In this document: positions 26,901 through 56,437 of the stretch, one piece after another
How positions within the stretch are numbered: position 1 is the stretch's first letter
Layout: every line of letters starts with the position of its first letter
NCBI GenBank assembly: GCA_050084515.1
Contig: CM114271.1
Span: 30,938,001-31,002,000 of the forward strand
Direction: 5' to 3'
From: Blasia pusilla
Lineage: Eukaryota
DNA: 64,000 nucleotides
Translations under genes and position numbers: made by a program
Notes under the pieces: model-generated
Databases searched by the model: none
What the model was told of the DNA's origin: nothing
The model's input: only the letters and a program-made list of their open reading frames with translations

Positions 26901-26945
26901 CAAAACAGCTCCTATAACTCCCAAGAAACTGGTGTTTTTGACACC
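23925..26945 (-). pseudogene. Element A pol 3' part: RT - RNase H - integrase - PHD finger
   Basis: RT: RRMCGDYRPIN...DLRTGYHQ...CYIDD. RNaseH: LGLGAVLTQ...VAYAS...YSSYEGECL...ARWALLLQEYDF. Integrase: HHCC finger, RWSLDF...FSKWIEL...TDQGIEF. PHD: CMLC..(Y)DGC..WHMAC...WMCPRC. Several stops and frameshifts. Confidence 0.92.
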
Positions 26946-26950
26946 GCTCT

Positions 26951-32900: not shown

Positions 32901-34329
32901 TAACGTCGGCGAGGCAGATGAGTCTCTTGGGGTTTGTGGTGATCTCATTCATGTTTCATGACTGAACTTAGTGACGCGCCTAGGTGGAATACAGGTGACC
33001 CAAAAGTAGTATGAGTTGGCTAGGTAGACAAAGGTTGTTTACAAATAGTGAGTGAAGTGTTAGGTTGCAGACTTAGTGAGCTTATTTTGATAGTTAGATT
33101 AGTTTTGGAGAACTAGTCTAGGCTCATCGAAAAAGCGAAGCTAATAAGTCTAAGTCTTTGCAAGCGACAAACCTAAGACTTAAGCCAAAAGAGGAATTGC
33201 GGGTTAGCTACGTAACGCGATTATGTGTTAAGGGTCGGCTTCCCGAACTTAACATCAATAAGGTTTGCGTTGATGAGGACATCAACCTTCTAAGGAGGGG
33301 TGAGTGTCGCGACACTCATAACCAAACAACACCAAATACGCGCAAGCGAAACATCGAACTCAAAGGAACTCACGCCGCGAGGTTTGCGCTTTGAGAGGCG
33401 TTTGGAAGAGTCTCTTGAAAAGTCTAAGAGACTAAACGTGGAACAGAGTTGTGCGTTTCATGCGTTAGTGGTCGCGACCAGGAAACCTAGACCAAACGCG
33501 AGCGAGACTTGAGATGAGTTGAGTCTCGGAGGTTGGTTGCCAAGGAGGTGAGAACCGATTTGGAACACGGCTAGCGTTTGGGAGAATCTGACTGTGTTTA
33601 GGACCATAACGTTGAGCTCCGAGATGCGTTGGGGACAAGTAAGGGCGCGTTGGAAAGCTGATCTGGAGACGCTTCCAACGCACCAAAGATCTCAGCAAAC
33701 GCATAAGTACAGGCTGAGATATTGGCCGAAAACGATTCAGAGAGCAATCGGGTTGAGGGCCAATTGAGGGGCCCAGGTGTCTTTCCTAAATGTAGGGGGC
33801 CCCGGAGATCCCCAGAATTACTAGTAAGGGGAGTACCTTCTCTGAGATGTCTCGGGAAATGAAACCCCACTTTGGGCGCCAAACGGCGTTTCAGAGGCAC
33901 GGGATGAAACGGGAGTTTGGCGCGGAAACCCGAAACCCAAACCTGATCCAAGGGAGTGGACTTTGTACGCCACACTTGGATTCCAACCCGAGATTCACTT
34001 CGTGCGAGTCTTGGTGAGGAACTCATTGGATGTTCATCGGACAGTTGGAACCGCTAAGCGCGAAACGCCGTTTCAGGTTCCTGAACCGACCAGAAAGTCT
34101 GTCCCAAGTCTTTCGAGACTTGCCCGTGTTGGAAACCGCGAAACTAGGAAGGTTGAGCTTGAAGAGAGAGTCCGAGACGAGAACTCGGAAAGTAATCCCG
34201 CTGATTGATCCAAGACCCGACTAACCGAAGTGCGTGTTTGGATGCAGATCAGCGTTGAGAGCGTGACCTACTGAACGCACGCTTCCGCAACAAACAAGAT
34301 TAACGTTCAAGGAGAGTAGGCGCACGACA
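26951..34329 (+). mobile_element. Element C: full-length Ty3/Gypsy chromovirus (Galadriel/Tcn1-like) nested in element A
   Basis: LTRs 26951-27977 and 33305-34329 (TGTCGCG...CACGACA); perfect 5-bp TSD GCTCT; PPT AAGGAGGGG before the 3' LTR; a degenerate tRNA-Met-like PBS after the 5' LTR. Confidence 0.97.
28100..32615 (+). pseudogene. Element C gag-pol (frameshifted): Gag CCHC - protease - RT - RNaseH - integrase - chromodomain
   Basis: [36 protein letters not shown]...[30 protein letters not shown]...[32 protein letters not shown]...YLVKWKGY...ATW. Confidence 0.93.
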
Positions 34330-34699
34330 GCTCTCCTCTTGTCAACTTAGGGCCCATATGTGGCTCCCAAGTCTCCATAATGACTATGGTAGGACTCTCC
34401 GGCGTGGATGTCGGCGGTTGCTATGGTGCAACCCCGTCTCGGACAATAGAACTCTCATCTCCACGTGCAGTACCCGGAACTACGCTCGATGCTGTGGCTA
34501 TCATCTCCTGGCATACGTGCAAAACATCCCAAGAAGTCCAAGGGTATCTCTCCCAATCACCTCTGGTGTGTCGATCTCCTTGGGTCTTGCCCCTAGCCAC
34601 TACCTCAACCGTCTCGATAGGCATGGGGCTCACCAACACAACTTTTGTGATATGTTGCATCCCCAAATGACGTTGCTCAGCTACTCCTAAGCTCAAAAT

Positions 34700-35580
34700 C
34701 CATGTCAAACAGTTCAGGTCCATCGCTTGACCCAAGACATGACGTCGTGATGCCTCTGATAGTGACGGTACTGTCGTCACTCCTGTGGGGAATCCCATCA
34801 CTTGCTCTCGCTCATCGACGTTGGGCTCCACCAACCTCTGTATCTGGTCATCCCAAACCAAGCCAGGTCCGACCTCCTTGAATGCATAGGAAGCAGGAAA
34901 ACTCACCAATGTGGGAAAGGCTTCTCGTGGCATGCCAATCTTGTTGACCACAGTCAATGGCAATCGATCATCATGCCTCACTGCCTGTGATCGATGGCCC
35001 GGATCCAATATAGAATCCACCAACAAATTGGAGGGACGCTCCACTCTCACATAAGCCCTCCTCAACACCTCATGTGGTACCAAGTTGGTCCATCAAAGAC
35101 GCACACCTGATGTGCACTCATCACCACGCGGGACCTTGAATCACCCAAAATTGGTATATTCTCCAAAATGTATGCTAGAGAATGAGGATGATGCTCATGT
35201 AAATGTCATAAGATCCGCATCATCTCCCAAAAAACCTGGACCGAGTGTCAGCTAACCCGCAACCTCATCCAACACTCGATTGGCCCTCACACGGCCAACC
35301 AGCAATGACCAAGTCTATGGTCCCTACCCCCTCCAAGTCCCTTGCGCCCCCAAAAATGAAATGTCCCTTGGTAGGGAACTCTGGTAACTCTGAATGGCGG
35401 ACGCAGACAACAAGTCAGGAAAACGGAGGCGTAACAGCGCCACATGGTGAAGTGAAGCACGCCTTGCAACATCATCAATCTCCACATTTAGGTACTGTTG
35501 CACGCGCACTCTAGCGTGCAAAACAACAACTAAACCAATGCTGATCCCTCCAAAGAGTTCCAACACCCAAATACCCTCCT
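34700..35580 (-). pseudogene. Element A C5 cytosine DNA methyltransferase domain (degenerate)
   Basis: Motif I VLELFGGIS, II VEID, IV DLVIAGWPC, VI YILENIP, IX/X EREQVMGFP...RRHVLGQAMD. The motif VIII region is deleted relative to element B. Confidence 0.88.
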
Positions 35581-35729
35581 CTGGGATGCACCACACAATC
35601 AGGATGATGTCTAAATGGGTCATAGCAGCACTCCTACCTATCTGGGGTTCCTCTGACCCGTCACACTCTAGTGCAAACATCTTGCTCCACGCGGTCTTCA
35701 CATGCTCAGTGGCTAAGCGTCGAAGCTCC

Positions 35730-36565
35730 TCAGTCGAGCCCCAAAGCGGCTACCATGCCACTCCTCTCCATAGAAATATCAAGAAAGGGAGTATCCTTTG
35801 CATGGACATGTCCCTCAATCAAATCACTAGGCCAAGTGATGGCACTGCTAGATGCTGTTAAGGTCACTGTCTCTCCTGGCCGTTGCTCGATCATTGCACT
35901 TGTGAATCGAACGGGTAATGAGCTAAGGCGCCCATCAGCTGAGTGCCATCTTGGTCTGTAGGACGCTGACTCCTCCAAGTAATCGAGGGAAAACCCCATC
36001 GAGTATAACATTGCTCCACCAACCAGGAGGTTGTAGGACTCTGCATCAATCACTGTCGCCTTGGCTCGTACCACAGACTCATCTATAGGATGTCCCGGGA
36101 GAATTCTCACCACGACCTCCTATCGGGTGATATATTGTGTGGTACACGCTCCACCCAAGGATGTCTGTATCCAGAATGGAAAACGCTCCACATCGGCTCT
36201 CGTCAAGCCCAATCCTCTAAATGACGCTTTCCCCAACATCACGGGTTTTGCTCTTGAATCCAACAAGACGCGCTGCGGACTAAAAGCTCTACCTCATGGA
36301 CTCACCAACTGGAAGACCTCTCCCCGATTATCCAGGGAAAAAAACACGAGGAAAAGCCATGGCACGCTCTATCACGGGTCTAGCGGGCATCTCCGCCATC
36401 CTAGCAGCCTACACGCTCCCCCTCGTGTGAAGATGACACAAAAGGAGATTGAGGTGGTCTCTCACGTGGAGACCCTCGAAACCTCGAGCCACTCCGGGTA
36501 AACCCTCCAGAGCTACTCTTAGGTCCACTACCTCGCCTCTCAAAATCCCGAAAGGACGCCATGAT
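35730..36565 (-). pseudogene. Element A gag N-terminal stub and aspartic protease
   Basis: The GGFTRSG stub matches the element B gag start (GGFTQSG). Protease reads RVLLDS(R)AKPVMLGK...YNLLVGG. Confidence 0.8.
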
Positions 36566-37928
36566 GGCCCTCGTGCCCCTCCCACATGATCAATCCCAAT
36601 CTCGCGAGTAATCCCTCACACATGCGGCACTCAATCTACACTCTCTCATTGAGATGTGTGTTGTGCGGCAACAAGCAATATGGTGCGGAAAATCAACTGA
36701 TCTATCATCTCATCGACAAACCATCCTCAACTCTGGACATCCCACACAGGTCTATCTCCCCTAAACCCATACATCATCGATGCTCATAGCATCAGCACGA
36801 AACCCAATATCCCAAATAACTTCCCAATACTCGAAAATCCCTCACAAGTGTAGGATAAGAGACCAGAATGGGTAACCTAAAAATAATGTCGATGTCGCTC
36901 CTCGGCAACTATAAATCTCAACCCCAACTTGGTCGTGAAGACAACTCCTCCAATCAGCAAGTCGTACTCCTCTCGTACTGACGCTGCTGAAACCTCCACA
37001 ATGTGCGGTGCAGGTCTAGCAGTCCGGTGCGGCAGTGGCGGCACGGAACGACTACAAACGACATGGCACTCGGGAATGGGATGCGGCACTCGACGGCATA
37101 CCCTCCTCAATCAGAAATTCACATGCTCTGCTTCTTAGTGAAGGAGCGGCTCCGTGATTAAGATTATCCCTCCCCTCTCCCAAGCTTTCTCCATGGTAAC
37201 CTATGCTCCCAAGTCACCTCCTTGGCTCTTAATCTGATGTAGGAGGCCAAGGGCCACTTACCAAAAATAGAAAATTGCCCATATATATTCAAAATGGTAC
37301 TAACCTAAAATAGTAAGTTACTCAATGTGGCTCTAAATGAGCCGAAACGAAGGGGGAACCTGCTCTCTCAGGTTTTCTAGGGCCTCAGTAGGTCATCCTC
37401 GACCTTCTCAGCCTGTCCTCCACTACTCGCGAAGGTGCTCTATTAGATCTCATCGATCTATCCTAAAAGACGTGAGTTGTATGGAAATGGACATGCGCAA
37501 CGGATCCTCTGCCCAAGTTTATTTGGTAACCCAATGGCTCGCGCAAGCTTGGGATACAAGAACGGGTGTGGGCTTAGATTAAGGGAGGCAAGCAGGCAGG
37601 AATTGGCCCGCCTTAAGCCCGCATCGGCTCAAGGCCCGCGGCTTGGGGTGGGTGCCAACCCAATGCGCCCTTGCGGACCTTGAGCTTGCCATATGGTCCA
37701 GATCGCAAACATGTGTGGGCTTGCCATAAGCTTAGGGAGGGCCAATACGGGCTACAAAACGGGTTACGGGAATGGGCTCGGAAACACGTTCCTTGATTGG
37801 GTATGAGCTAGTCGAGGTCTACATTGCAGGCATGGCGGACTCGGGTGTGGGTTGCGGCCCGCGAGTACCCAAGCCCGCACGGACATGGACATATCCGCGG
37901 ACACAGACTTTGTTTGTGTGCAACCTTG

Positions 37929-38080: not shown

Positions 38081-40527
38081 GTAGATCATACATACTTATT
38101 TTTCAGAAGTAGATGCTGTTGATGATTTTCCACCTTGCTTTTCTCTCTCCAATTGAACCTCCATATTGCGAAGTTCAAACATTTGAGACATTAGCTCCAG
38201 TTTTTTATCTACTTGTTGGGCTTTCTTTTTACTTTTCTCCTTCAAAGCTTGAATAAAGGCATTCATTGATTGTCTAATATTATCACTAGTATCTCTCGAC
38301 TTTATTTTTTTGTTTGGTTGTTCTGCAACTCCTGGTCGAGAACATGCTTTGCTTCTCGGACTTTGTTCGGTACGTGGAGCTTCACTTCAACTCATATTCG
38401 ATGTGTGGGTTTGAGGTATGCCTATTGGTTCATGTAATGGTCATGATACAAGTGTCAATAAATGCCAACTGATGTAAGAACTCAAAAATGGAAGGGCAAG
38501 TGTGAAGAAGGTAGGAAGTGTGTCAAAATATATAGTGGGAACTCATGCGCAACTCAAGATCCCCTTTCTCCCTAAGCATCTCCTAATTAAAGTTCTTCTT
38601 TGTCTCTCCAATTGAAATTTAAATCTTACTTCAAAATAAAAATAAAAATAAAAAATATTTATTTGGCTCTAAATTGAATTCCACCTCTTCTTTTATTCAA
38701 TCATATAATAAAATGAAACCAATTAAAAGCATAAAATTGAATAAGAAAAATCTGACGTGACGCGTGAAGCCTCGGAAGCCATCCACGTTCACATGTGTCA
38801 ACAAATGAAGACTTGACCGTAAAAAGGTAAGCACTATTAATAGATGGCGGTAGCGGTAGATAATGATCACCCTCTGAGCTTATCAGCGAAACGACAAGAC
38901 ACTAGTCTCGCTGTCAGTCGCAGTTTTGTCTACTAGCGCACGATCTCTTAGTTTCTTCTTGGCAGTACGCCATTGGTGCGCTGGAAGTCACTCAGTCCAC
39001 CTTTTTGCTTTGACCACCACAGTGACTGAATTCACGACCCATGACTTCTGGGTCTTCGGTATAGCTTCGTTTTCTTCCTAGGGTATAGCTTGACCTGACC
39101 TCTCGGGTTAAAGTTAAAATACCCGCACTCAAACTGCCCTCACCCTCTTCCTGTTGTGGCCTTCAGGTTTTGACTCTTTGAGTCCCCCCCTCTTTTGTAC
39201 TTCCGATGGGTTTTCCATCACTCGTTTTTATCGAAGTGTATCTTCGCCTTTTCTCAAACTGTGGGGCAGGTCCCCGATACTTTTCCGGATCACGGGTCCC
39301 TCCGGGATCCGGATGGAGTGCCGGTCTTGTTATCGGCTGGATGACGGGTGGAGGAGTTGGGAGGTGGTACCGAATATCGAGATCTACTAGTTGTTGGCTC
39401 TTTTGGGGCCAGAAAATAAAACAAAATAAAAGAAATTGGCAGTGGGAAATGAAATGAATATGTGAAGGAATAGGAACGACGTGAATGGAGATGTGAGCTC
39501 TTAATCAAGATAAAAATTATTCTATGTTATTTATCTTTTTTTTTTTTCTATTATCCGCACTCTACTAGTACTTTTTATGTTCAAGTCATTTCAGTGTTTT
39601 TTTTATTGTCTACTTCGTTATCTTCTTTCTAGTTTTATATCGAATTTAATTTCCTCCCCATCAAATTAAAAAAAACCCAAAAGCAAGGTTGCATATTGAT
39701 TTTGTTTACTCGGTACATAGATGATTGCTTGGAGTTTCTCCAAGAAAATAAAAAGTCTCCCATTTTCTCCCGCAATATTTTCATCGTCATTGCATTTTCC
39801 TCAATTTTCTTTGGGTGCCCGGTTTTTTTATTCCTTTCATGCCATAGGTCTTCTAATTATAGGTTAAGGTCTCGGAACTCGTACCCTACTACCCAGATGA
39901 ATCCGGATTTTATAAAGAATGCTCACATGGTATTTCATCACGTTGTTCACCTTGAGTGTCACTCTTAGGTGGAACCATTCTCCTAATTGGAAAATAATTT
40001 CATTCCTCACAGATGTATTTATCTTGAAAAAAAAAAAATATTTTCAGTTCTCCTAATATCACTCTCTGCTCCAACTTCAAAAGAAAAGAGGAAAGTGAGT
40101 ATTGTCACAATGCAATGTCCGAGGAGAATCGGGATTACGTGTTTAGCTTGTCGGAAGAAATTTAAAATTATGGATTCAAATTCTCAATCACACACCAAAA
40201 ACCAATGGAGTACATGAGTTCTCCTTTGTATTTGTATCTAAATATCTAGTTCGATTCAGGAAAATTTTAAGATGTACCGCTAGAGTGGAAGACAATATTC
40301 TAATATTTATTGTTATTTGAACTTTAGAATTGCAAGTATTTTCAAATGTGTAAACTGGTTTCCGCAAAAAAATTGTAGGAATTATTATGCAAATTTCTCC
40401 TTGATCTCCATCCCACTACATCTAACCCATCCTATCCCAATTACAACATAAGGCACTTAGCCATTTCCTCACGCTTTCCTTCATGGTTTAGAAATACTTT
40501 CAATTCAATTTATTGACTAACCTCCCA

Positions 40528-41110
40528 TATCGTGCGAATCCACATTGTCATACAACGTACATCGCTGACATACCATACTCACATACATACATAACATAGA
40601 CGAGAGCATCCACAAACACAAGTGTACCACAACTGAAATCCGTGAAAGACCTACTGTCATAAAACACGTATAGAATCACATACAATTGAGCCAAACCCAC
40701 TCCACGATGGGAGAATCCACGTTGAAGCTTGCGGGAACCACCATAGCCAAGAGCTCTACTCACTACCAAGGCTAACTCCCAACGCAACAGGCTCAACTCA
40801 AAGAACTAACTGTTCTTTGAGTGCACTCCACACTATATCCTCCAACCTAAGAGCGGGCCCTACTGGAAAAGTCACCCTCAACTAAGTAAACCCCAACCCT
40901 ATGTATGAAACCGCATCTCTACCTAGATACTACGGACCTACATAAGGTATGGCCTCTACTAGCACACTATACTCTACGACATAATCCGTATGGTCATGAC
41001 AACTGTCGTGCGAATCCACATCATCATACAACATACATCGCTCACATACCATACTCACAAACATACATAACATAGATGAGAGCATCCACAAACACAAGTG
41101 TACCACAACT
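40528..41110 (-). repeat. Element B 3' split repeat block B1-A2-B2
   Basis: A 107-bp unit occurs at both 40528 and 41004, flanking a 368-bp unit that recurs alone at 47653-48020. Confidence 0.93.
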
Positions 41111-41120
41111 CGCCCCCCTA
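41111..41120 (-). promoter_or_regulatory. Polypurine-tract-like G-run immediately upstream of repeat B1
   Basis: Sense-strand TAGGGGGGCG abuts B1. The same motif occurs in element A at 23743-23752. Confidence 0.65.
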
Positions 41121-41282
41121 ACTGGCGGTTAGGTCCCTCTAACTCCCAGAAAGCCCTATACATCTACTACATGCTATACACCTTCTTGGGTACACGAATC
41201 AGAAGGCCGGGTGCTAGGTTGCCCCATCGTTAGTCGCCCATCTATAATCCTTATCATGCAAAGATCAAGTCATCTACCTCTC

Positions 41283-42389
41283 CTAAGTACATCAAGGACA
41301 AACCCACCTTCCAGTAGGAACAACATCCATACGTGGAGTCAAACACATCATGTGCCAACCTCTAGAACACCGATCACACACCAACATACGAGCTGCGTTA
41401 CCAACAGACCCACACAACATGCACCTTAAGGTAGCACGTATCATGGCTAAGCTTGGGTCAACAATACCATCCATATTTGGAAGATGACATGGCGCACAAT
41501 TACGCACATGGTCCTTCCAAACAACTCCATCACGACCCTCCAACATGAGAACTCCAGAAGATAACACCTCGCGCACTTGTAAAATAGTGCGGCTTGCCGT
41601 CACATCCAACGTTGTCGATGCAATCTGCTGCAAATAGACATAGTTCCCCATATGGAACCTATGACTCGATGGTCGATAACCTCCACCCCGAATGGTTGCA
41701 TACCGCAACGTATCCCTATGTTGAGCAATGGCAAGATTCTCAAAGGCTATTGGCATAACTCTCCGAAAGAGCTCTGCCCGCTGAGAACACACTCTCATCC
41801 ACATCTCTGGGTCATCAAGGTTCACCACCTCACTAGACTCTCGACGAATTGATGCAAGAAAGTCTGGATCTCGGCCGTATAACAAAAAATAAGATGAGAA
41901 GGAAGCCAAGGATGTTTGGCGACTGAACCTATACCCCATGGCTAACCATGGCAACTGAATATCCCAGTCTCCAAGATGCCCCTTCTGTAGGCCATACTTG
42001 CACAATGCCCTCTTCACCGTCTGAACCACACGCTCAGCCAAACCATCCGCCTCTGGATGATCTCGAGATGTGGTTTGATGATCAATCAACGCCTTGTCAC
42101 ACAAGACCTGAAACTCACCCTGAAACTATGTACCCTGGTCGGTCAGCACTTCAGCTAGTGCACCAAAATGACTAAGCACACTATCAGAAACGCATACGCC
42201 GTTCCCTCACTTGCCTTGTCAGGTAATGCCACCAATTCAATCCACTTGGAGAAGTGCTCCACCATCACCAACATATATCAATGATGTCGTACAGTCAACG
42301 GTAACAGTTCTGCAAAGTCCACACTCCAACGGTAACCCAACCCCATAATAGGCAAGGGGTGTAACTGTGGTGTAGGGGCATTGAATGAT
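41283..42389 (-). pseudogene. Element B integrase core + PHD finger
   Basis: PQLHPLPIMGLGYRWSVDF...; DHPEADGLAERVVQTVK; C4HC3 PHD CMLC...CDRC...WHMMC...WVCP*C (TGA likely from CGA). Confidence 0.9.
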
Positions 42390-42390
42390 G

Positions 42391-43325
42391 GTCAAAAAAT
42401 TCAGGTCCATGGCCTGACCCAACACATGACGTCGTGAAGCCTCAGAAATGGAAGCAACCGCTGTCACACCAGTAGCAAATCCCATCGCAAGCTCTCTCTC
42501 ATCAGCGTTAGGCTCCACCAACTATCGCACATGAGAATCCCATACAAGCTCGGGACCACCTTCCCTGTAGGCATGTGACGAGGGAAAACTCACAAATGTG
42601 GGTAGTGCCATCCTAGGCTGGCCCACACGGTTCACCACTGCCATGGATGACCGATCAATAACCCTCACCACTTTAGAAAGTTGCCCAGTATTCAAGATAC
42701 TATCCACTGTAAGGCAAGGATCCCGTTGCACTGCATCATATGCTCGACGTAGAACCTCCCTAGGCAACAATTTTTTCCACCACAAGCGTGGACGATGTGC
42801 ACGCGAGCCAACTCGCGCTGCATCCAACAATACCGCTGGTCCAATCCAAGACCGCACCTCATGAACACTCGCCATCATCCGGGTCCGAGTGTCACCCAAC
42901 AATGGAACATTCTCCAGAATGTAAGCACATGCCTGATGAACCTGAAGATGTCGTAACACCCGTAACATCTCCCAAAATAATCGAGACCTAGGGTCGTGGA
43001 ATCCCTCACCATGACCAGCACGTGTATGACCGTGACATGGCCATCCAGCAATCACCAAATCCACAGGACCAACCCTTTCAAGGTTCTGCGCCCCCAACAA
43101 TGCAATGTGTGACGGTAAAGCACGCTGGTACCCACGAATAGTTGATGGCGGCAACAACTCAAGATATCTCCACATCAAGTGACCAATATGTCGGGATGAG
43201 ACTCTCTGGGCCGTCTCATCTGGCTCCACATACACGTATCTCTGCGCAGGAATACCGGTCTGCAACACTGCAGCAAAACCAGTGCTAATCCCACCAAAGA
43301 GATCTAACACACAAATGCCCTCCGG
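42391..43325 (-). pseudogene. Element B C5 cytosine DNA methyltransferase domain (all catalytic motifs present; one internal TAG)
   Basis: I LDLFGGISTG; II YVYVEPD; IV DLVIAGWPC; V LFWEMLRVL; VI YILENV; VIII DAA...AHRPRLWW; IX-X ERELAMGF...RRHVLGQAMD. Motif order and wording are DNMT3-like. Confidence 0.93.
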
Positions 43326-46180
43326 CGGATACTACCATACAATGGATGTAGTATCCAAAGGGGATAACCCAACTGGACCAGAAGTAGGGGTCCGCCGTGG
43401 GGCCTCCTCTTCCTCGTGAGTTATAACAGCCTCACACCAAGCCTCATGCACTAGGCAATGAGCCTCTTTCCGTAGTGCACCGCCTGAACTCCCAAGTGGC
43501 ACATCCAACGACAAGGATGCCACTGCTGCAATACTAGGGACCTCCTCTACCTCCTCATGCACAAGAGAATCCATAGCAGAAAGATTACCCTCCAAAAAGT
43601 CTCCTGGCCAAGTGACTACTCCACTAAAACCAGCCATAGATGCTAACACCATTGGGCAAGACCCTCCTTGTCGAGCCCCATAAATAAATCTCACAGGAAC
43701 GTGGCTCATACATCCATCCCCGGACTGCCAACCAGGTCTATAAGACGCTGTCTCAGTCCAATAGTCCATCTGAAAACCCATCGGGTACAATAGTGCTCCT
43801 CCAACTAGTACATCATACGACTTGGCTGATGTGACCACTGTAGGTACTCCCAACCGGGAGCTATCAGTCGCATGATCTGGTCTCAACTGTACAGAGAACT
43901 TCTCCCGTGTCATGAATTGAGACCTATCATTGGCTCCTCCAAGTGATGTTTGAATCTGGAATGGGCAAGGCTCAAGCTCTGACCTCCGAATACCCAAACC
44001 AATACATGCCGCCTTTCCCAACATCAAAGGTTGGGCACCAGAGTCTAACAAGACTCTATTTGGTCTATACACCTGTCTTGTAGGACTCACCAATCGGAAT
44101 ATCCCACTCCGGTTGTCCAACATACATATACCAAGTGTAAGCCTCTCACGATCAATGGCTGGCCGGGCTAGTAATGCATCCATCTTTGCCGTTGCTGCTT
44201 GCCAAGTAGCACTGGTACTCAATGCTACACTTGACATAGAGGGTTGCTCCACCACAACACCCTCATCCACCTCAGCACGTGTAGCAATAACACCCCCATG
44301 TTCATACAACGTGGCTGCTAGCTGAAATACAGGAGCTAAGTCAACTCCTAAAGCCATCAGCTCCGTGGCCGAAAATAATGAGGATCCCAACATTGAAGTT
44401 GCCATCCGCAATATTGCACTAGATGATGCATCCGTGTCTACTACACGTGATGTAGATGCCTCAGTCCCCAATGTAGGCTCAATAGGCTGCGTAGGAACCA
44501 TGGATGAAGTCCTAAGCACCTCAAACAACAAGAATGACTGGGGAAGCCTAACCTGCCTCCGAGCCTCACCCCTCTATGGGTCCAACTCCATAGTAGCACC
44601 ACGTGGCTCTGACGCTTGAGTGGCTCCTCTCGTAACTCCATCTGATGCCTCAACCTATGCTGCACTCGCCATATAAGAGAGATCATCCCCTCCATAAGAG
44701 GTGGAAGCCCCTGCTCCCGAACCTGCTCTATGTTGGATACGAGCCATAGTAGCCAACTTCTGCTCCAACAACTCAATCGTGGCAGCCATAGCTGACTCTG
44801 TCGTAGTGGTAGGGGTAGCCACCGTAGGCTCTCCAAACACTGGTCCACCTCTACCACCTCGGCCTCTTGGAGCTACTCCACCATGGCCGCGGCCTGATCT
44901 CAACTCTAGATGAAGATCAAAGCAACGCTCTCGAGGATGACCTGGTCTCCCGCAATGATCACACTAAGTTGGGGCCGACTGAGGCCCATCCTCTTGGGGA
45001 CAAAACCTCCTAACATGATCACCTCCACATGTCCAACATGACTGTCCTTGCTCCGGGGCAGCAAATGAAGGCAATGGTCTCTCTGCAAGTGTCCCTCTAC
45101 GACCTGACTGAGGTCGTGTGTACCCCCCACGACTCTCACTACTACTACCACCACCACTACTGCGAGACTGTGAGGTGGACTGCTGAACACGAGAAGTAGT
45201 AGGTGTATCCCTACTGAATGTGGATGTCACCACTCTCTCCTCCACCATGTTAAGCTCAATCTTCTCAGATAGAGCAAACACATGGGTCAATGTGGGTGAA
45301 TCATCACTCATAAGAGTAGCATCACGTACCCTGCGGTGCAACTCTCTGTCCAAGATCCCATACCAAAACTGGACTTCCTGAGCCTCAGTCACACCTTGGG
45401 TAACTGAAATCAAGTGTCGCATACGAGTGTATGCCTCACAAAGACTCTTACCAGTCTTTCGCTCAAATTCTTGGAGACTCCTCAACTTCTCTGTCTTCAC
45501 TCCCTGATAGTTCTTCTTCAACCTCTTGAAGAACTCTGCAACCAGGCTGAATGATGGTGGGGCACTAGTACCTCCACTAGTACCCCCACTGGTATCTCCA
45601 TGGGTACGTCCACTGGTACTCCCACTTCGGCTCATACTTGTACCACTCAACCTCGGGCTGGCTTGCATAGTAGGAGCACTACTACAAATACCACCATGGG
45701 TGATAGACACATAACCTGGAGACCAATATTGTCTCCACACCTCAATCTGAGCAACATGGTCCTTCCTAAACTCATGGTTATCATCCATGGGTGGTCCCTC
45801 CAAGTGCTGAAACAACCCCTTCCAAGCCAAGAAGGGTGTAAACAACGTGGCGTTCCGCAACATCTGTATATCACACCACGTATCAAACTCTTGCATAAAG
45901 TCCTCCAACTCAATGGTGCCCACTGCACTCGAGTATCGTGTGGGCCCTTCATGGCCCCATATATCCTGTCCATGTCCCAAATCAATGGAGCTACAACACT
46001 CGATAACAACATAGAAGACTCGGTTTTTGGAACACCCTCATCCTCCTCTTCATCAACCGTCGGAAGTGGAAAAGGTAGCCGATACCTCAATCCACTTTGT
46101 GTAAAACCACCACTATCCACACCACGGTCCCCAACTACACCACTAGACAACTCCGTGATGACCAATGCCAATGCCGCACC
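43326..46180 (-). pseudogene. Element B gag (two zinc knuckles) and aspartic protease, in frame with the DNMT
   Basis: CWTCGGDHVRRFC and CDHCGRPGHPRERC knuckles; RVLLDSGAQPLMLG...YDVLVGG protease. ORFs 44964, 44655, 43332, 42522 and 42237 share one frame. Confidence 0.88.
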
Positions 46181-47652
46181 ACCACCAAATTACCACCACT
46201 AAGTAACCAAGTGACGTCGATGTCACTGTACTATTCTAGCTCTACTAGCTATGGGTATAGGCAACCTAACATGTCATCACCACAAGAAGCCTCCCACGGT
46301 CTACTGGTCATCACGCCAGCCTAACTACCGGTAGCACACAGGAGTAACACTACTCTGGAAATCAGCGTCAACCCTAACAATGGCGCGCAAGCAAGAAGCA
46401 ACGATGGAAGGGATCCAAACACAGGGAGTCCAACGACAAGCCTCCAATCGCAAATGGAAATCAAGGTAACACAATCCACCAAACATGGCGCCCCCTGAAT
46501 CCACAGAACCCACCACACAATTCTAACGCAATAGCTACTCTGCCGCGGGTTGATGATGTGCTAGTCGGACTCGCAGCACTTGAAAATATCACCTACATGG
46601 AGAGGCTACACTGTACTATGCGCTAGAGGTCCATCAACCAAAAACCTGAGATGCATAAAGCGCCTAACACATCTCCGAATAACACCAAATGAGCTACACG
46701 AGTGTGTACACTGGCATAGTTAAGAACTCAGCAGTTAAGCGTCTTCTAGGAAGAATAGCCCAAAGATGGGTGACCAGTTATGCAACACTCAAATCACAAA
46801 TCCTGCAAAAACTGCCTCACGCCCAAGCAAGCAAGCTTGCTCCTTACTCCGCCTCTCACGCCCACTCGCCCCGAGCTACCACGAGTTGCCTTGAAGCTTC
46901 GAAATGCTCAAGACATGCCCCGTTCGCCATGCTTCGCTATGGAGAGAGGCCCAACCAGGCTGCCCCCAACGGGATAGGCGTCTCCAACAACAGACGAATC
47001 ACCAACCAACCAGCCCCTCCGATCTGCTGTCCACCATAACCAGACCTTGAGCTAGTCCGCAAAATTTTGATCAAAAATTACTCCACAAATCCTCAACAAA
47101 AATTGAATCTATTTCAACCAGAATTCAATTGGCTACCATAGTTATCTCTCCACAAAAAATCAACTACAACAGAGCTCTGTACTCTGAGCTAAAAATCAGA
47201 CAAACTTGCTGTCCATACACCTCAAGAATCGCAAATCCGACAGCACTTCCGCCTAGATTCATGCACACAGAAATCCACAACGCTCCACACACTCAAGTAG
47301 ATAGCTTCACATGAGATCACAATACAAGTAGCAAGAGGAACCTCTCACCCAATCTGGATGAACTTCAACAGAGCTTCCGCACTCCAAGCTCTCCATATCA
47401 GAAAACCGTCGAACACGAAACAAAATCTTCAATCCTTGATAACTTCCAACTCCCTTGACAAAATCCGGCGATCTAAAGCGCGTTGGAAAGCTCTCAGCAA
47501 GACGCTTCTTTCCCAATCAACCACGCACTAGATTCCTACCTCCAGCATAGGCCACAAGCCACGAACATCCACGGCTGAGTACACAATCAGCCCTAACTAG
47601 ATCCTATTGATCCACAATCAAAGCTACCATCGATCTACTCTAGTTCTTTGAG

Positions 47653-48020
47653 TGAAATCCGTGAAAGACCTATTGTCATAAAACATGTATAGAATCACAT
47701 ACAATCGAGCCAAACCCACTCCACGAAGGGAGAATTCAGGTCAAAGCTTGCGGGAACCACCATAGCCAAGAGCTCTACTCACTACCAAGGCTAACTCCCA
47801 ACGCAACAGGCTCAACTCAAAGAACTTACTGTTCTTTGAGTGCACTCCACACTATATCCTCCAACCTAAGAGCGGGCCCTACTGAAAAAGTCACCCTCAA
47901 CTAAGTAACCCCCAATCCTATGTATGAAACCGCATCTCTACCTAGATACTACAGCCCTACATAAGGTATGGCCTCTACTAGCACACTATACTCTACGACA
48001 TAATCCTTATGGTCATGACA
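47653..48020 (-). repeat. Element B 5' repeat A1
   Basis: Near-identical direct copy of 40634-41001. It is not accompanied by a B unit. Confidence 0.93.
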
Positions 48021-48197
48021 CCCCCTTCCAACCCATCCCTTCATGTGTACATGATATTTATTTTGTATAGACAATAATTTAACACTTTCGGTGTTAAACA
48101 AGTGATATACCAAGAAATGACAACATTCATTATTATTTACACACAATCAATAATGTCCCCACATGATGGTTGAAATCCAAGTTGAGAGGGATTGGAG

Positions 48198-48528
48198 CAA
48201 GGTTGCACGGAAATGAGCAAGTCCAGACATGTTGACGGACATGCTTGGCCTGTATCTGAGCCCGCATCCAAGCCCGGTCAGAGCCCACCGCGTAGACGTG
48301 GGCTAATAGAGCCCGCACCCGTTGCGTGGCCCGCAACAAGTCTGCAGGGCGGGCTTGGCCCCCATTGGACGGGCTCAGGCCCGCACATGGCCCGCAAGGC
48401 GGGTTGGGGACAGGTTTCCAGCGGGCTTGGGTGCGGGCCGCGGGTCCCTGAGCACGGACATACATGTCCGTCCATTGGACGGACATGGACATGTTCGCAG
48501 ACACGGACTTTTTTTGTGTGCAACTCTC
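48198..48528. mobile_element. hAT-type MITE, copy 3
   Basis: TIRs CAAGGTTGCAC / GTGCAACTCTC; degenerate 8-bp TSD GATTGGAG / AATCGGAA; shares the GGACATGGACAT..CGC.GACAC.GACTT subterminal block with copy 2. Confidence 0.7.
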
Positions 48529-51500
48529 AATCGGAAGAAGAGTTTAGTAAATAAATTAAATTGAAACTGATTCTAAAATGAAGTGAAGATTGTAGAAAAA
48601 TGGTTAGTTGTGCGGGTCACAATCAAGCCGTCATGAGATCATAGTTTTTTTGCAAAAATATTTCCGCAAATTTCAAAACATCAACATTTCCCAAGAAAAT
48701 ACAAGTATTCTCAGCATCATTAAATCCCCAAAAAATGCCATTATCCCAAACAACAATAAATATTGTTGGTTTTCCTATTTCGACCTCCATTTTAGGCTTA
48801 TCTCTGAGCCTAAATAGACTTAGAACTCAGACCATTTATTAGGAGCTCCGACCCAACCACCGAAAATCAAAGTGAAAAATATCAAGAAATCAAAGTGGAA
48901 AATTGTAGTCCCACCAACCTAGGCCTCACTTGGTCATTTGTAGGGAAATGATCATTTACCGAGCAACGCTTGTCTCTAAGAGCCAGGTCTCATGGATGGC
49001 CGTAGAGGTTGCATTGACCTCATTTTTGCACCCAATTTTTTTTTCCGACGGAAAATCCAAGAAAACACACAAATTATTTGTAATAACCACCCGATATGTA
49101 TTACTCATGGTTTCCATGACGTCGCGCAGTGTCTATGCCCAAAAGTTCTGGGCGCAGAAAAAGTGGTGACCTCCCATTGTTGCTACGACCTCCCACCCAT
49201 GGGACCTTGCTCTAAAGAGGCATAGATGTTTCCTAGACAACGTCAATCATGACTATTGTGTCGACCAACTCTCTATGTCAAAAAATAGCAAACTTTACCA
49301 TATGTAGTGAATACCCAAAATGATGTCTACTTGTGCTCTTCCTACTAAGTTGTGCTCTTCCTTTCTGATAGTAAACCTTGAGAAGTTTAGGTCTCCACTA
49401 GGAACCCATATCAAGGCGTCTCATACAACATGAGGTAAGCGTAGGGACCTCTTTTGTGTCCTTGTTTGGAAAATGAGGATGACTTGTTACGGCCTTTACA
49501 AGTACAAGAAAAATTAAATCCCTTGTAGGGAGGGCGCCACATCCCAAATATTTTTCCTCAACAGCGAGACTAGCCACGACATTGTGCTTATGTGGTAAGC
49601 TAAGATACGTGATACTAGACTCCATTCACTCCGAGGTTCTCCCCTGATTAGGGTGGTTTTTTGTGCACGGCTTTGAAATGTCAGAGAGCTACCACCAGTT
49701 TCCCTCCTCTGTGATCGTGGTGTCGTGCGTGAAACTCTGCTGATTGATCAAACGTGCTTCTGTTTGAATTTTTTTCCCCACACCTTCCAAATGTCATAGT
49801 ACTACCGCGAGCTTCCCTTCTCTCTGATCTTCATTTCATTCGTGAAACTCTCCTGATTGATGGAACGTTTGATCCAATCTGCTTCTGTTTGATTGAATAT
49901 GTTTCCATCTGATTTTCAATCATTCGTTTGTTCGTGCAATGGCAAGGCCATGTGTTCGAGGCTACCATCACCATAGGCCGCAACTTCCTAGGCGCCATCT
50001 TCGCAATTTCCATACACAGAAGGCACCGCCATTTCTTTTCCATCTCCATTCGCAACTCAAAGCATTTACCTACGGTTTCCTTACATTCACTCTACAACAT
50101 ATTTCGTTGCGTGAGTTTTGTTGCGTGTTTCTACTTGTCCACTTGCTGCTCTTTACTCGAGTCTGACTCGTGGATAAGACTGCGACTTACTTTCTTACAT
50201 AGCCTGATATTGCTGATTATTCTCCGTCCGCTTGCACTCGTACTAGCACTCACTGTTGGCTAATTCTTCGTCTAGTAGTTGGATTCATAGTGTTTTATTT
50301 CCTCACCACTGCCTTTGCACTTCTTACTTGCCCTTGCAATTCGTCCGCTCGGTGGATGCCTCTGTTGGGAGTGATTCTAGGTAACACATCTGTAACTTCC
50401 CGCGTCCTTGCAACGTTTTCTATTTCGTTCTTAGCTTATGCTACAGGGACAATTTTTGTATCGTGGTCACGTTCTCTGTTACGAGTGCTCTTGACGGGTT
50501 CATCCCTTCCTTGAAACCTTGGATATTTTTCTTAGGGTTTAGTTTGGATGTTTTGGGATATGACGTTACTAACTCGTATGGTTTCTTGCCATTTTTCATG
50601 GACTCTTGCTCTTGAGTCTCCTCACCCGTGGTAGCACTGCATTTGCATCAAGATTCTTGCTTGGTAGCCAAAGGTTCTGCATGTGGCGTCGGGATTTCTC
50701 TCATGGAGAAAATCCTTTGCAACTGGATGATGTGAGCCGATCAGGGCACTGTTGGAGGAAAAATTGCACAAGTTGGGGAGTCGGTGCCCAAAATCTCTCT
50801 TTCGAATCTCTTCATTGGAACTCACCAAAATCGTTGACAAACAGCAAGAGTTTCTTGGGGTTCTTGGCATCCTAGATGCAATCTGCTTATGCCGGATTGA
50901 TCCTCCTTTTTTCTTGAGACCCTACCTGTCGTTGTTCTCGTTGTTTTTGTTGCTGTTGCTGCTGTTTCTCCTACTACAGACTCTCTCGATAGGAATTCTA
51001 AGTGGAAGTAGCCCATTAGCCATGGCATTCGCATCCATTGTGTCCTCCGCAGTGGGACAAGCTTTGCTTGAGAGAGGAATGCTTGTGCTTCTCTTCACTG
51101 CTCGTGTGTTCTTCCACAATTTCTATTTTGTTGCGGGACTACTTCACAAGCAGCCGTGACTAGAGACTTCCGGCACACCACTATTATGTTGGAACGAACA
51201 TACTCGTTTCAGTTGGTCCAGGCAGACATCTTCCTTGATCTTAGCCTTCATGTTGACGGTTGTGTTTGATACAATGCATGTCTCATTGTGATTCTGGTGC
51301 GACAACGAACCCTCCTGATCGTGCAACTAGCCTTTGGAGACGTTCACGTACTCAAGCTGCTTCTACTCTTCCTCGTTGATGGAGTTTGGGTAGCTCTACA
51401 CTATTGGTGGTGGCGATCCATGGTAGTGGGTTTCTTCGAGCTCTACATCTTGGTTCGCAGCACGGATACTCGCATTTTTGTAGTCTTCTACTTCTTGTTG

Positions 51501-52399
51501 TCTGAGCTTGCTTGAGGACCGAAAAGAAATAGTCGAATGCAGCGCTCGTCAAAATTTGAGAGCCTGCACTCTCATATATGCCTCTCAATTACTTCCATTT
51601 ATTTTTGAAAGTAGTATTTAGCCAACAATGATGCAGAATGCCGACATGTTATTCAAGCTATCACGCAACAATTTCCTGTTCATATCTCTCTACATACTAC
51701 ATTCGAACCCTTAAAAATTTCACTCATTTTTTCTTCATTTGTACTTACACTCTTATGTGGATGCTTCGACTTCCAACTGAGGATCATCTATTCGTAGTTC
51801 AAATCCTACATTTTTGTTTATATTTATGAAATCCGGCATTGCAGGTTGTTAGTTTTCTGTACTAACATCTATGTGATTCACATTTTACAGGTCAAAACTA
51901 TAGAATCAGTCTCTTATGCTCTTGAGATATGTCATACATCCACTATCTTTGAAAAAGAAATCTCATTTATTCCCTGTTCATAGCTTCGGTTCCGGATGTG
52001 TCCTATCTTAATGTATTGTATATCTGTACTTTCATGGGGATTTGTTTAGCTTTAGGTCACTAATGTATCTTCTTGATCTTTCCATAGTCAACTTGGAAAA
52101 AACAATATTGATCCTAGCTACGGGTAGTAAACATATAGTATGCCAACCTACATATTATGCTTACCTATATTCGTGTACAACAAAGGATGAGTACTCTGCA
52201 CCATTGAAATAGGAACCCCATTAAAATTAACCTCTACAAAATTATTCACCCATTTCCATTACATTTGAAACTCTTGAAACTCTTAAGAGAGCCTTATTTT
52301 GTACTTTCAGTAGGAAGCTTATGCATGTATAAGAGGCACTGAAAGCTTACAATTTCAGAATATTCTCTTTCTTCAGTGATAACTAACTCACTTTTCTTA

Positions 52400-55300: not shown

Positions 55301-56400
55301 GAGACTTCGCAGTGATGCTACTAGTGTCCATTTGGCGTTTGCAATACCAATAAAAGGTGATCTTCCTTGTATGAATGTTGCATCTAATACCTATTTGAGA
55401 CTTAAGATATCTCAAGTTATAGTTATAGATGGGTGTTCCATGCTCACGCCTAAGTTACTTCAAATCATAGCCATGCGTTTAAATGAGGTATCATATTCAA
55501 CATCCCCTACTCCTTTTGGTGGCAAATTGGTAGTCTTGGTTGGAGACTTATGCCAATTACCACCAGTTTGTTTTCACAGATGTTTTGAATTCTGCAGAAA
55601 TTGTCACATCAACTCCTCTACATTCTTCGATGATATCTTTACTCTTGAACTTACCACTCCAATGAGACATGCTACACATCCATCGTATCTCTTGTTTCTA
55701 AACTCTATCAGGCTTTGCATTTCCACTCAGGATCAGATAAATGATTGTCTATCTTCTTGTTTTGTCCTCGAGTCTGATGCCATTGATTTTATTAACAATG
55801 ATAGAGTAATAGTTTGTACTCATTGCAAAGAAGTATAAATTTTCAATGTCTTAGCACTTAGAAGGCACTTTGGCGATGTGTCAATTATAGAAGTATATAT
55901 TATATCAGATGCCCCTCCAACACCTGAATTTATTTTCTGGTTACAAGATGAAGCATTTTACCAGTTGCCTTTTGTGGCCCTCCATTGCACAGTCATGTTA
56001 ACATCCATAATTAACTTGAGTATACAAGCTGCTAATAGATCCTTAGCAGAAGTTTCTGACCTTATTTACAAAGACACTGACATAGTATAGATTCAGGTTA
56101 GGATTCTGTCAAGTGGCAAGTTTGTTACCATACCTAAGAGAAAATTCGCAACATTGAGGTATGATTCGGATCGCAAATATGTTAAGAAAACTTTTCCTCT
56201 TATTCTTGGGTATGCCATGACTGCTCACAAAATTCAAGGCTTGATCAAATATAAGTGGACATTGTCTTCTCGTAATCAAATCTATTTTTGCACTTGGACT
56301 TACTTATGTTATGTTATCTAGGATTAAGAGTAGAAACCGGCTAAAAATGTTTGGCAAGTTGCAACTTGATGATTTTAAAGTGTTTGATACTGTCTAACAA
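52400..56400 (+). mobile_element. Helitron Rep-helicase pseudogene
   Basis: Rep motifs SPSW...FFLTLT, YELQGRGSLHCHMILW (HUH) and YLLKYAPK. PIF1-like helicase motifs GPLGCGKT, VIVIDG(E)CSM, PFGGKLVVLVGDLCQLPPV, FPLILGYAMTAHKIQG and YVMLSR. Many stops. Element termini not determined. Confidence 0.9.
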
Positions 56401-56437
56401 TACTCACAAACGCTGATTTTTTTCTACAAGAGTTATT

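Follow-up and report, generated by a model that had tools for sequence, protein, structure and literature searches.

Two dead Ty3/gypsy-like retrotransposons carrying a Dnmt3-like methyltransferase domain in a bryophyte genome

Two decayed elements and a nested chromovirus

Element B occupies positions 40530-48020 of the window, the whole 64-kb stretch of DNA that was analysed, and lies with all of its features on the minus strand. Its boundaries were set by self-blastn, by the repeat junctions, and by a 4-bp flank (GGGG/TGGG), and the unit has the layout A1-coding-B1-A2-B2. The 5' LTR-like repeat A1 (47653-48020, 368 bp) starts with TGTCATG, ends with CA, and is 95.9% identical in self-blastn to repeat A2 (40634-41001), with 15 differences in 368 positions. 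A purine run resembling a polypurine tract precedes repeat B1 (41006-41110), which shares 94.3% identity with B2 (40530-40634). B2 closes the integrated unit on the right and ends in CACGA(T)A. The TGG-containing word that starts B1 is perhaps a primer-binding-site-like sequence, although this is a guess; no tRNA genes for a primer-binding-site comparison were found within the 64-kb window.

The coding part begins with gag (44655-46037), which was recognized by tblastn to the Marchantia protein P0002. Two CCHC-type knuckles were spotted by eye, and the region has no Pfam match. The protease core (43671-44150) carries a D-S-G-A motif and likewise has neither a Pfam nor a PDB sequence match, each at E up to 1. 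However, AlphaFold2 models the first 160 or so residues of 44150-43335 as a confident core (pLDDT about 90), for which the best PDB folds in Foldseek are the DDI1 RVP domain and the RSV and HIV-1 proteases (E 7e-5, TMt 0.55-0.68). The modelled fold thus assigns the region to the retropepsin-like proteases. Next comes a Dnmt3-like C5 cytosine methyltransferase (DNMT) domain with motifs I-X (42391-43331), identified by Pfam, PDB sequence and profile searches, an AlphaFold2 model, and Foldseek. An internal deletion at 42390|42391, evident from tblastn and RNA reads, has removed the last helix of this domain together with the reverse transcriptase (RT), RNase H, and integrase zinc finger. The position 42391, at which the earlier note placed the start of the methyltransferase, coincides with this deletion junction. 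Beyond it lie the integrase core and a C-terminal PHD finger (41292-42390; tblastn to protein P0030, residues 1181-1545). The PHD finger matches Pfam PF00628 at E 5.4e-9, and a stop truncates it before the last zinc pair.

A single tblastn segment in frame -3, from 45950 to 42384, aligns element B at 65% identity with residues 9-1193 of P0002, a gag-protease-DNMT protein. The methyltransferase had been described as lying in frame with gag and protease. The shared frame is indeed present, but it is interrupted by five TAG stops at 44964, 44655 (both in gag), 44574, 43332, and 42522, of which one falls between protease and DNMT and one (42522-42524) separates motifs VIII and IX of the DNMT. Although every stop in this frame is TAG, we rejected recoding or read-through of this codon: the residues opposite the five stops in the aligned Marchantia proteins are, in order, V or T, Q or H, Q, E, and Q; element A is also frameshifted; and the stops of related loci are mixed (28 TGA, 25 TAG, and 14 TAA). 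Element B is a non-autonomous, decayed copy.

Element A (22977 to about 37476, minus strand) is an older copy of a different subfamily. Its repeats, located by self-blastn, are A1 (about 37165-37476), B1 (23617-23740), A2 (23099-23616), and B2 (22977-23098), with A copies 88.6% and B copies 89.5% identical. The protease region (35742-36408) was found by tblastn to P0002 residues 589-813, and the DNMT domain (34523-35749) survives as four frame pieces with stops, 44-58% identical to P0002. The RT and RNase H (25228-26950) were found by tblastn to P0004 and P0030 and match Pfam RVT_1 and RT_RNaseH weakly, on fragments. The integrase and PHD finger (23929-25365), also found by tblastn, match Pfam rve at E 6.4e-11 and PHD at E 0.0015. 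Both copies in the window are dead.

The gap between DNMT and RT in element A exists because element C, a chromovirus (Ty3/gypsy with a chromodomain; 26951-34329, plus strand), is nested there. Element C has LTRs 96.8% identical over 1036 bp, a 5-bp target duplication (GCTCT), Pfam matches to RVT_1 and Chromo, and also CCHC and protease regions. Two statements of the earlier note are borne out by this arrangement: a diverged methyltransferase copy sits at the equivalent position in element A, and RT follows once element C is removed, resuming at about 26950, where it adjoins C.

The A-coding-B-A-B layout is shared by both window copies and the related loci L046, L041, and L069/L070, and is partly visible in L054. 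Thus, the family has split repeats instead of two plain LTRs around the coding part. The termini read TGTCATG...CACGACA (TG...CA), and the internal B1-A2 junction is identical to the two termini joined with 2-4 extra bases. Target duplications of 4 bp flank L041, L046, and L070 and, with one mismatch, element B. We attempted to derive a reverse-transcription scheme that would give A-coding-B-A-B with integrase ends, and none fitted. The Ty3/gypsy Pol order of protease, RT, RNase H, and DDE integrase is found in element A and in 28 of the 38 long related loci, and the relatives listed carry RVT_1, RT_RNaseH, Integrase_H2C2, and rve. A tyrosine-recombinase element of the DIRS/Ngaro/PAT type was ruled out by the rve integrase and the 4-bp duplications; PF00589 (tyrosine recombinase) occurs in none of the 32 and 120 homologue rows listed. 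Assignment of A and B to the chromoviruses was ruled out as well, as the PHD finger replaces the chromodomain.

Identity of the methyltransferase domain

The segment 43331-42522 of element B matches Pfam PF00145 at E 8.7e-10, with 39 bits against a gathering cut-off of 22, so the profile check proposed in the earlier note came out positive; the match spans profile positions 62-120 only. A PDB sequence search with the B domain returned the catalytic domains of DNMT3B and DNMT3A, with an alignment that spans query residues 6-225 (E about 4e-11). A profile of the family recovered DNMT3A at 5.8e-28 and DNMT3B at about 1e-24, followed by tobacco DRM (3e-14), Arabidopsis DRM2 (1.7e-10), and M.HhaI (9e-9). 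DNMT2-type tRNA enzymes reached merely E about 0.0036, and no DNMT1 or chromomethylase was found at E up to 0.01. Ranked by E-value only, the domain therefore appears nearer to DNMT3 than to DRM, DNMT1/MET1, CMT, DNMT2, or the bacterial enzymes. The ESM Atlas label, "C5 methylase" in phage-rich clusters, is uninformative on kinship.

The predicted structure gives a similar picture. The AlphaFold2 model of the B domain (pLDDT 94.4, pTM 0.92) aligns collinearly with DNMT3A/B along about 315 columns, and all top Foldseek matches listed are DNMT3A/B/C (TMq 0.71-0.74). Motifs I (FxGxG), IV (PC), VI (ENV), VIII (RxR), and IX-X are all present in non-permuted order, represented in B by F12-G13-G14, G96-W97-P-C99, E140-N141-V142, H179-R180-x-R182, and a motif IX-X block. 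The catalytic columns, including the Cys, ENV, and RxR positions, are at least 90% conserved across sets of 26 and 70 sequences and are nearly invariant among relatives. The domain of element B had been called a complete catalytic domain. Every motif named for it is in place, but the domain is severed just after motif X and contains an internal TAG.

Distribution, selection and transcription of the family

The order gag-protease-DNMT-RT-RNase H-integrase-PHD is found in 28 of the 38 related loci that are at least 7 kb long. Three of the remaining long loci have the order RT-RNase H-DNMT-integrase, and seven are cut or deleted. A sequence search with the domain gave 2587 matches, the best 150 of which are all stronger than E 1e-26, and at E up to 1e-10 the DNMT family comprises 525 clusters (50% identity), with members in liverworts, mosses, Closterium, and chlorophytes. 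Among named sequences, those nearest to the element are from Marchantia, Calypogeia, and Sphagnum, and Closterium also holds named relatives; Marchantia polymorpha supplies 17 of the 32 relatives among the matches listed. Klebsormidium sequences are not named among the homologues listed in the protein searches. In the methyltransferase tree, the domain of element A forms a separate branch inside the bryophyte clade. The sole host gene compared, a U-box/ARM gene at 5369-6649, has two matches, one at 56% in Marchantia paleacea and the other at 55% in M. polymorpha. The host gene and the nearest named relatives of the element both point to a bryophyte, probably a liverwort, in agreement with the suggestion that this kind of element extends to a non-seed land plant.

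Selection was assessed by NG86 estimates of dN/dS between element B and related loci, dropping comparisons below 58% identity or with alignments shorter than 70% of the query. The median is 0.23 for the DNMT (42 loci, range 0.12-0.35), 0.23 for gag (18 loci), and 0.22 for integrase-PHD (14 loci); dS in these comparisons is 0.5-0.8, close to saturation, and each of the two lineages compared has a phase of neutral decay that followed insertion. When the related loci are compared with one another, the median is 0.51 (314 pairs, range 0.14-1.12), and the DNMT domains of A and B give 0.22 with dS saturated at 1.5. The DNMT is under purifying selection on par with gag and integrase. A stop-free full domain is present in 7 of 80 related loci and an open stretch of at least 700 amino acids in 5 of 80, three of which have the RT-RNase H-DNMT-integrase architecture.

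In three RNA-seq runs labelled with the same species, each of the 30 bins of 40400-48200 has coverage, and the signal is strongly biased to one strand. In the bin 41183-41443, first-mate depth on the plus strand is 134, 157, and 143, compared with 5, 0.2, and 7.7 on the minus strand, and we take the RNA to be sense, assuming the usual library design in which the first mate is opposite to the RNA. Depth climbs within A1 (47653-48020), and coverage stops near the 3' end of A2, with a depth of 63-92 in 40661-40921 versus 2-5 in 40400-40660. Only 19 of 2374, 11 of 2321, and 12 of 2574 reads per run are at least 99% alike to element B, indicating that the RNA stems from sister copies and not from B. 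Sister-copy reads that cross either edge of the deletion junction continue with sequence unlike the window, in numbers of 43-54 (at 42390) and 24-55 (at 42391) in each run. Translated, these overhangs encode the DNMT C-terminus and a C-x2-C integrase motif. Transcription of sister copies of the element continues.

The CpG observed/expected ratio is 0.57 in B, 0.64 and 0.68 in A, and 0.55-0.60 in three relatives, whereas it is 0.99 in the nested chromovirus C, which has a similar LTR age and offers a single comparison. However, the depletion is not specific to the elements, because the flank at 48100-64000 is also at 0.57.

Possible roles and comparison with known systems

We conclude that A and B are almost certainly two dead copies of a Ty3/gypsy-like family with the order gag-retropepsin-Dnmt3-like DNMT-RT-RNase H-DDE integrase-PHD, of the same kind as KnitGypsy-Dnmt3 of Klebsormidium nitens. 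What the methyltransferase does for such an element can be proposed with less confidence. The protease would release the methyltransferase from Pol, and the freed enzyme, a predicted de novo CG methylase, might then act, inside the particle or during integration, on the new DNA of the element itself. The integrase's PHD finger might direct insertion to a particular chromatin state. Self-methylation taken by itself is a tentative proposal, to which we would give a little less than an even chance. Nevertheless, the overall explanation, joining family identity, methylation of the element's own DNA, and PHD-steered integration, is the one toward which we lean.

An alternative is that the domain is kept for a role other than DNA methylation, either as a methyltransferase of RNA (the genomic RNA or primer tRNA) or as a module of Pol that serves in structure or DNA binding without catalysis. 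The KnitGypsy-Dnmt3 domain produced no methylation in yeast, a result from which its authors drew no firm conclusion, and the same authors suggested RNA methylation for a LINE-borne DNMT (PMC5890265). However, a purely structural role would not require that the Cys, ENV, and RxR columns be at least 90% conserved in 70 sequences, and the nearest solved relatives are the DNA enzymes DNMT3A/B, whereas DNMT2-type tRNA enzymes match merely at E about 0.003. We consider this reading rather unlikely.

Somewhat less probable again is that the enzyme acts in trans on host chromatin, near the insertion or away from it, and so dampens its own family or reshapes the host methylome instead of marking cDNA. 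In its favour, the nearest solved relatives of the PHD finger are chromatin readers (KMT2C/D, DPF2/3, CHD4, ATXR5, KDM5, BAZ2, UHRF1, and AIRE), which bind mostly the unmodified H3 tail. Self-limitation and effects on the host methylome have also been discussed (de Mendoza 2018, PMC5890265). However, the DNMT and PHD finger are far apart in Pol, and protease cleavage would part them. The present data do not discriminate between action in cis and in trans.

The earlier note had named neutral evolution and sporadic presence as marks of a captured host fragment, and the idea that a few copies captured a piece of a host DNMT3 that now drifts can be dismissed on the counts: although no stop-free full domain survives in 73 of 80 loci, the domain is Dnmt3-like, holds the same position in 28 of 38 long loci, evolves at the dN/dS of gag and integrase, and spans 525 clusters from liverworts, mosses, Closterium, and chlorophytes.

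If the preferred explanation of a self-methylating element is extended across the green plants, the elements might represent an old lineage of integrase-bearing retrotransposons, spanning chlorophytes, Closterium, liverworts, and mosses, that carries a Dnmt3 and histone-reading PHD kit and DIRS-like split repeats, is transcribed, and methylates itself before entering the genome. This broad view is doubtful at present. If it holds, acquisition of the DNMT, placed "in the K. nitens lineage" by PMC5890265, would not be a Klebsormidium event, and the function of a transposon-borne DNMT could be tested in Marchantia, a tractable model with many copies. Cytosine methylation is the main weapon of the host against transposons, which makes a transposon equipped with a de novo methyltransferase a paradox. 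The relatives described here broaden the phenomenon from a one-alga curiosity to a long-lived family of the green lineage and move the question to organisms with routine knock-outs and methylomes. Furthermore, counts of bryophyte "DNMT3" genes and de novo methylation phenotypes may include transposon-encoded enzymes. In the literature searched, Gypsy-DNMT3 elements are ascribed to a single charophyte alga or, in loose terms, to "streptophytes", although bryophyte or other streptophyte copies may be listed in the supplements of PMC5890265 and PMC12344493. The descriptions found in print concern algae alone, and the occurrence of this kind in a bryophyte appears to be new.

Chromoviruses such as element C resemble the A/B family in their protease-RT-RNase H-integrase order, in a chromatin-reader module C-terminal to the integrase, and in similar terminal words (TGTC...CACGACA). 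The A/B family differs in having a PHD finger in place of a chromodomain, an added DNMT, split repeats versus two plain LTRs, and a 4-bp versus a 5-bp duplication. The catalytic domain of animal DNMT3A/3B is the best sequence and fold match, with collinear motif order at about 20% identity. Unlike these enzymes, the element polyprotein has no PWWP or ADD domain and carries a PHD finger at its far end instead.

The precedent named in the earlier note, retrotransposon-borne DNMTs in dinoflagellates and a charophyte alga, is as published (de Mendoza 2018, PMC5890265). In Symbiodinium, SymbioDIRS-Dnmt3 and SymbioLINE-Dnmt carry a DNMT within the retrotransposon polyprotein, and SymbioDIRS combines A-coding-B-A-B repeats with a domain of Dnmt3 type, for which CG methylation in yeast is reported (PMC5890265). 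As described there, these elements use a tyrosine recombinase or an endonuclease, whereas the A/B family has a DDE integrase (rve), TG...CA termini, and 4-bp duplications.

Relatives in the chlorophytes Scenedesmus, Haematococcus, Chromochloris, and Monoraphidium, annotated merely as "pol" or hypothetical proteins, have the order RT-RNase H-DNMT-integrase-PHD. They share the integrase-PHD end with the A/B family, their DNMT is 31-37% identical over the whole domain, and their RT is nearer to that of element A (35%, 256 bits) than to that of chromovirus C (25%, 132 bits). They differ in that the DNMT follows RNase H instead of preceding RT, and they form their own clade in the DNMT tree (36 rows, SH-aLRT 99). 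The A-B-A-B layout was seen in none of three loci with the RT-RNase H-DNMT-integrase order.

KnitGypsy-Dnmt3 has Gypsy domains and carries a Dnmt3-type domain within its Pol ORF, its repeats are arranged A-coding-B-A-B (Fig. 4c legend), and its DNMT is under purifying selection with Ka/Ks under 0.2 (PMC5890265). The term "PHD" occurs nowhere in the text of that article. The A/B family belongs with this kind as far as the published description, rather than sequence, allows them to be likened: both have a non-rearranged Dnmt3-type DNMT in a Gypsy Pol, the A-coding-B-A-B arrangement, and purifying selection on the DNMT (here about 0.23). Unlike KnitGypsy-Dnmt3, however, the family described here resides in a land plant, a bryophyte, and not in a charophyte alga.

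Retroelements and the methyltransferase frame

Self-comparison of the window sequence reveals three retroelements. Element B (40530-48020, minus strand) has two kinds of repeats: the 368-bp repeat A (47653-48020 and 40634-41001), whose copies A1 and A2 are 95.9% identical, and the 105-bp repeat B (41006-41110 and 40530-40634), whose copies B1 and B2 are 94.3% identical and flank the second repeat A copy. Element A (22977 to approximately 37476, minus strand) shares this layout, with repeat A copies 88.6% and repeat B copies 89.5% identical. Element C, on the plus strand (26951-34329), is a chromovirus of the ordinary type, with RVT_1, Chromo, CCHC and aspartic protease domains. It has LTRs of 96.8% identity across 1036 bp and a target duplication of 5 bp, and it is inserted inside element A, between the cytosine methyltransferase (DNMT) and the reverse transcriptase (RT). 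Elsewhere, the window carries a host gene of several exons for a U-box/armadillo-repeat E3 ligase (5366-9881, minus strand; U-box E 4.9e-15, Arm E 1e-16), whose segment 5369-6649 has only two matches, both in Marchantia: M. paleacea at 56% identity and M. polymorpha at 55%. The source of the window is probably a liverwort from another genus. In Helitron-like remains (52649-57550, plus strand), one open frame matches Helitron_like_N (E 2.3e-7) and another the PIF1 helicase (E 7.3e-15), and short tandem repeats (58507-58820 and 58967-59244) have units of ~140-157 bp that are 72-85% alike.

The open frames read as DNMT in the earlier note lie on the minus strand. Its claim that the domain is in frame with gag and protease in element B is borne out by a single tblastn segment in one frame (45950-42384) with 65% identity to residues 9-1193 of P0002, a Marchantia gag-PR-DNMT protein, though the frame includes five TAG stops where relatives have sense residues. 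The region 43331-42522 scores above the threshold of Pfam PF00145 (39 bits, cut-off 22), the profile that the earlier note had proposed for a check, and matches the DNMT3B and DNMT3A catalytic domains among PDB sequences (E ~4e-11). A stop interrupts the domain once, and its final helix is missing. At 42390|42391 the domain is fused straight to the integrase core, with no RT, RNase H or integrase zinc finger. Like element B, the related metagenome locus L022 (10076-11551) has undergone a deletion that spared the DNMT, which there runs straight into the PHD region (gag-PR-DNMT-PHD); it is the second such derivative. Pfam and PDB searches found no sequence-level match for the element B protease, but its structural model has a confident core of ~160 residues whose best PDB folds are retropepsin-like proteases. 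In element A, the diverged DNMT copy that had been noticed occupies four frame pieces (35749-34523), and RT restarts at 26952 on the far side of element C, again as proposed. Elements A and B are both dead copies.

A profile from 70 family members, searched against the PDB, retrieves DNMT3A (E 5.8e-28), DNMT3B (about 1e-24), tobacco DRM (3e-14), Arabidopsis DRM2 (1.7e-10), M.HhaI (9e-9) and DNMT2 (0.0036), and neither DNMT1 nor a chromomethylase at E <=0.01. For the element B domain, with X in place of the stop and a 70-row alignment as input, AF2 predicts a model of pLDDT 94.4 and pTM 0.92, and the top Foldseek matches listed for this model are all DNMT3A, 3B or 3C catalytic domains (TMq 0.71-0.74, ~315 columns). 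Conservation is at least 90% at the SAM-binding glycines, catalytic Cys, ENV and RxR block.

Conservation and distribution of the family

The DNMT is a fixed, selected part of a large family. A metagenome scan gave 369 pattern matches and 104 confirmed relatives, the best 80 of which were kept as related loci. Among the 38 loci of at least 7 kb, the DNMT is followed by RT in 28, within the order gag-PR-DNMT-RT-RH-IN-PHD where enough is present, while three have the order RT-RH-DNMT-IN-PHD and seven are cut or deleted. Most family copies are decayed, since only 7 of these best 80 loci have a stop-free full DNMT domain and 5 an open stretch of at least 700 amino acids. The decayed loci include stops of all three kinds.

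The earlier note had proposed comparing dN/dS across copies. By the Nei-Gojobori method, with alignments below 58% identity or 70% of query length dropped, comparisons of element B with the related loci have a median of 0.23 for the DNMT (42 loci, range 0.12-0.35), near the values for gag (0.23; 18 loci, 0.15-0.31) and integrase-PHD (0.22; 14 loci, 0.16-0.36), at dS values of 0.5-0.8 that are near saturation. Zero protease alignments passed the filters. Elements A and B compared with each other give 0.22, but at a saturated dS of 1.5. When the related loci are compared with one another, the median is 0.51 (314 pairs; dS 0.05-2), as it should be if post-insertion decay accounts for much of the divergence.

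An exhaustive search yielded 2587 clusters (50% identity) at E <=1e-3, 525 at <=1e-10 and 75 at <=1e-30. Among the 32 related proteins listed, 17 are from Marchantia polymorpha, two from Calypogeia fissa and two from Sphagnum, and the other 11 are from metagenomes. No vascular plants are among the named relatives, few rows carrying names. Representatives with the DNMT before RT include Closterium species, and the RT-RH-DNMT-IN-PHD form occurs in Scenedesmus, Haematococcus, Chromochloris and Monoraphidium. In a quick, unrooted DNMT tree (75 rows picked from 217 proteins and 80 loci; LG+G4, SH-aLRT), elements A and B are separate branches of an 18-row clade with Marchantia, Calypogeia and metagenome loci (support 100), and the named chlorophyte forms all fall in one 36-row clade (support 99).

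Transcription and possible self-methylation

Raw reads from three RNA-seq runs carrying the window's species label cover all 30 bins of 40400-48200. In the DNMT bins (42488-43270), depth is 35-80 with the first mate on the plus strand and at most 3.6 on the minus strand. If the usual library design is assumed, the RNA corresponds to the minus strand, the sense strand of element B. Coverage climbs inside A1 and drops near the end of A2, a shape like that of LTR-driven transcripts. It hardly reaches B2. Reads at least 99% alike to element B are few (19 of 2374, 11 of 2321 and 12 of 2574), so the RNA derives from sister copies and not from element B. In each run, 24-55 reads at 42390 and 42391 run on with other letters, and in translation these overhangs give the DNMT C-terminus that element B lacks and an integrase C-x2-C motif. 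Thus, the expressed sisters have at least the DNMT C-terminus and integrase zinc-finger motif lost from element B. Of the 949 differences, the 40 listed with the best support include 30 with T or A in the window and C or G in the reads and none of the reverse kind, which fits C-to-T decay of the element B copy; over all differences, the kinds are roughly balanced.

Two RNA joints recur in all three runs. One (40680/40968; 5, 5 and 8 reads) leads 289 bases back inside repeat A, and the other (41674/45894; 4 reads each) jumps 4219 bases, from gag into the integrase end, and its boundaries are non-canonical (sense-strand CA..TC). Both probably represent other rearranged or deleted sister copies.

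The transcribed family carries a conserved, selected, Dnmt3-like domain between protease and RT. The DNMT might be cut out of Pol and, once freed, could methylate the element's own new DNA. De Mendoza et al. (2018; PMC5890265) propose such methylation for DIRS-borne DNMTs. Their yeast test of the Klebsormidium domain speaks against an active enzyme, as it gave no methylation, although they called the result inconclusive. CpG observed/expected is 0.57 in element B, 0.64 and 0.68 in the two parts of element A, 0.55-0.60 in the related loci L007, L046 and L041, and 0.41 in a more distant relative, against 0.99 in element C, whose LTR divergence (3.2%) is similar to that of element B (4.1%), and 0.86 in the host gene. 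This depletion points weakly to self-methylation. However, it is not specific, because the transposon-rich flank (48100-64000) also has 0.57.

Integrase end, repeats and known elements

A PHD finger (41292-41423 in element B, 23947-24060 in element A, both minus strand) closes the integrase in both elements and in nearly all relatives of either architecture. Its nearest solved relatives are the chromatin readers KMT2C/D, DPF2/3, CHD4, ATXR5, KDM5, BAZ2, UHRF1 and AIRE, most of which bind the unmodified H3 tail. Such binding would suggest that the PHD finger steers integration, a role played in chromoviruses by the chromodomain that they carry at this position instead.

The A-coding-B-A-B layout recurs in the metagenome loci L046, L041 and L069/L070, and partially in L054. 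Repeat A starts with TGTCATG, and repeat B ends with its near-inverse, CACGACA. Duplications of 4 bp flank the whole unit in L041, L046, L070 and, with one mismatch, element B. A purine run lies 5' of B1, a TGG-containing word opens repeat B immediately after A2, and the internal B1-A2 junction corresponds to both termini joined with 2-4 extra bases. None of the standard reverse-transcription schemes tried yields this layout with these ends.

Searches of openly accessible main texts turned up no account of such elements in either bryophytes or chlorophytes. The searchable text of PMC5890265 lacks the word 'Marchantia' and places acquisition by KnitGypsy-Dnmt3, a Gypsy-type element of Klebsormidium nitens, 'in the K. 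nitens lineage'. The available parts of PMC12344493 and of preprint 10.64898/2026.05.21.726589 name 'streptophytes' only. One openly accessible paper citing the 2018 work names Marchantia, in its available text for 4mC, and the accessible part of a Marchantia methylation preprint treating MpDNMT3b mentions no retrotransposon.

The overall reading of the earlier note, a retrotransposon-borne DNMT in a land plant, held, with the domain fixed between protease and RT and relatives in Marchantia, Calypogeia and Sphagnum. The value of these elements lies in a host range that takes in land plants, including a model liverwort, in how large and old the family is, and in the pairing of its split repeats with a DDE integrase (Pfam rve), here together with target duplications. 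They are of an already known kind, not a new one: the Fig. 4c legend of PMC5890265 gives KnitGypsy-Dnmt3 the same DIRS-like repeat layout as the family in the window.
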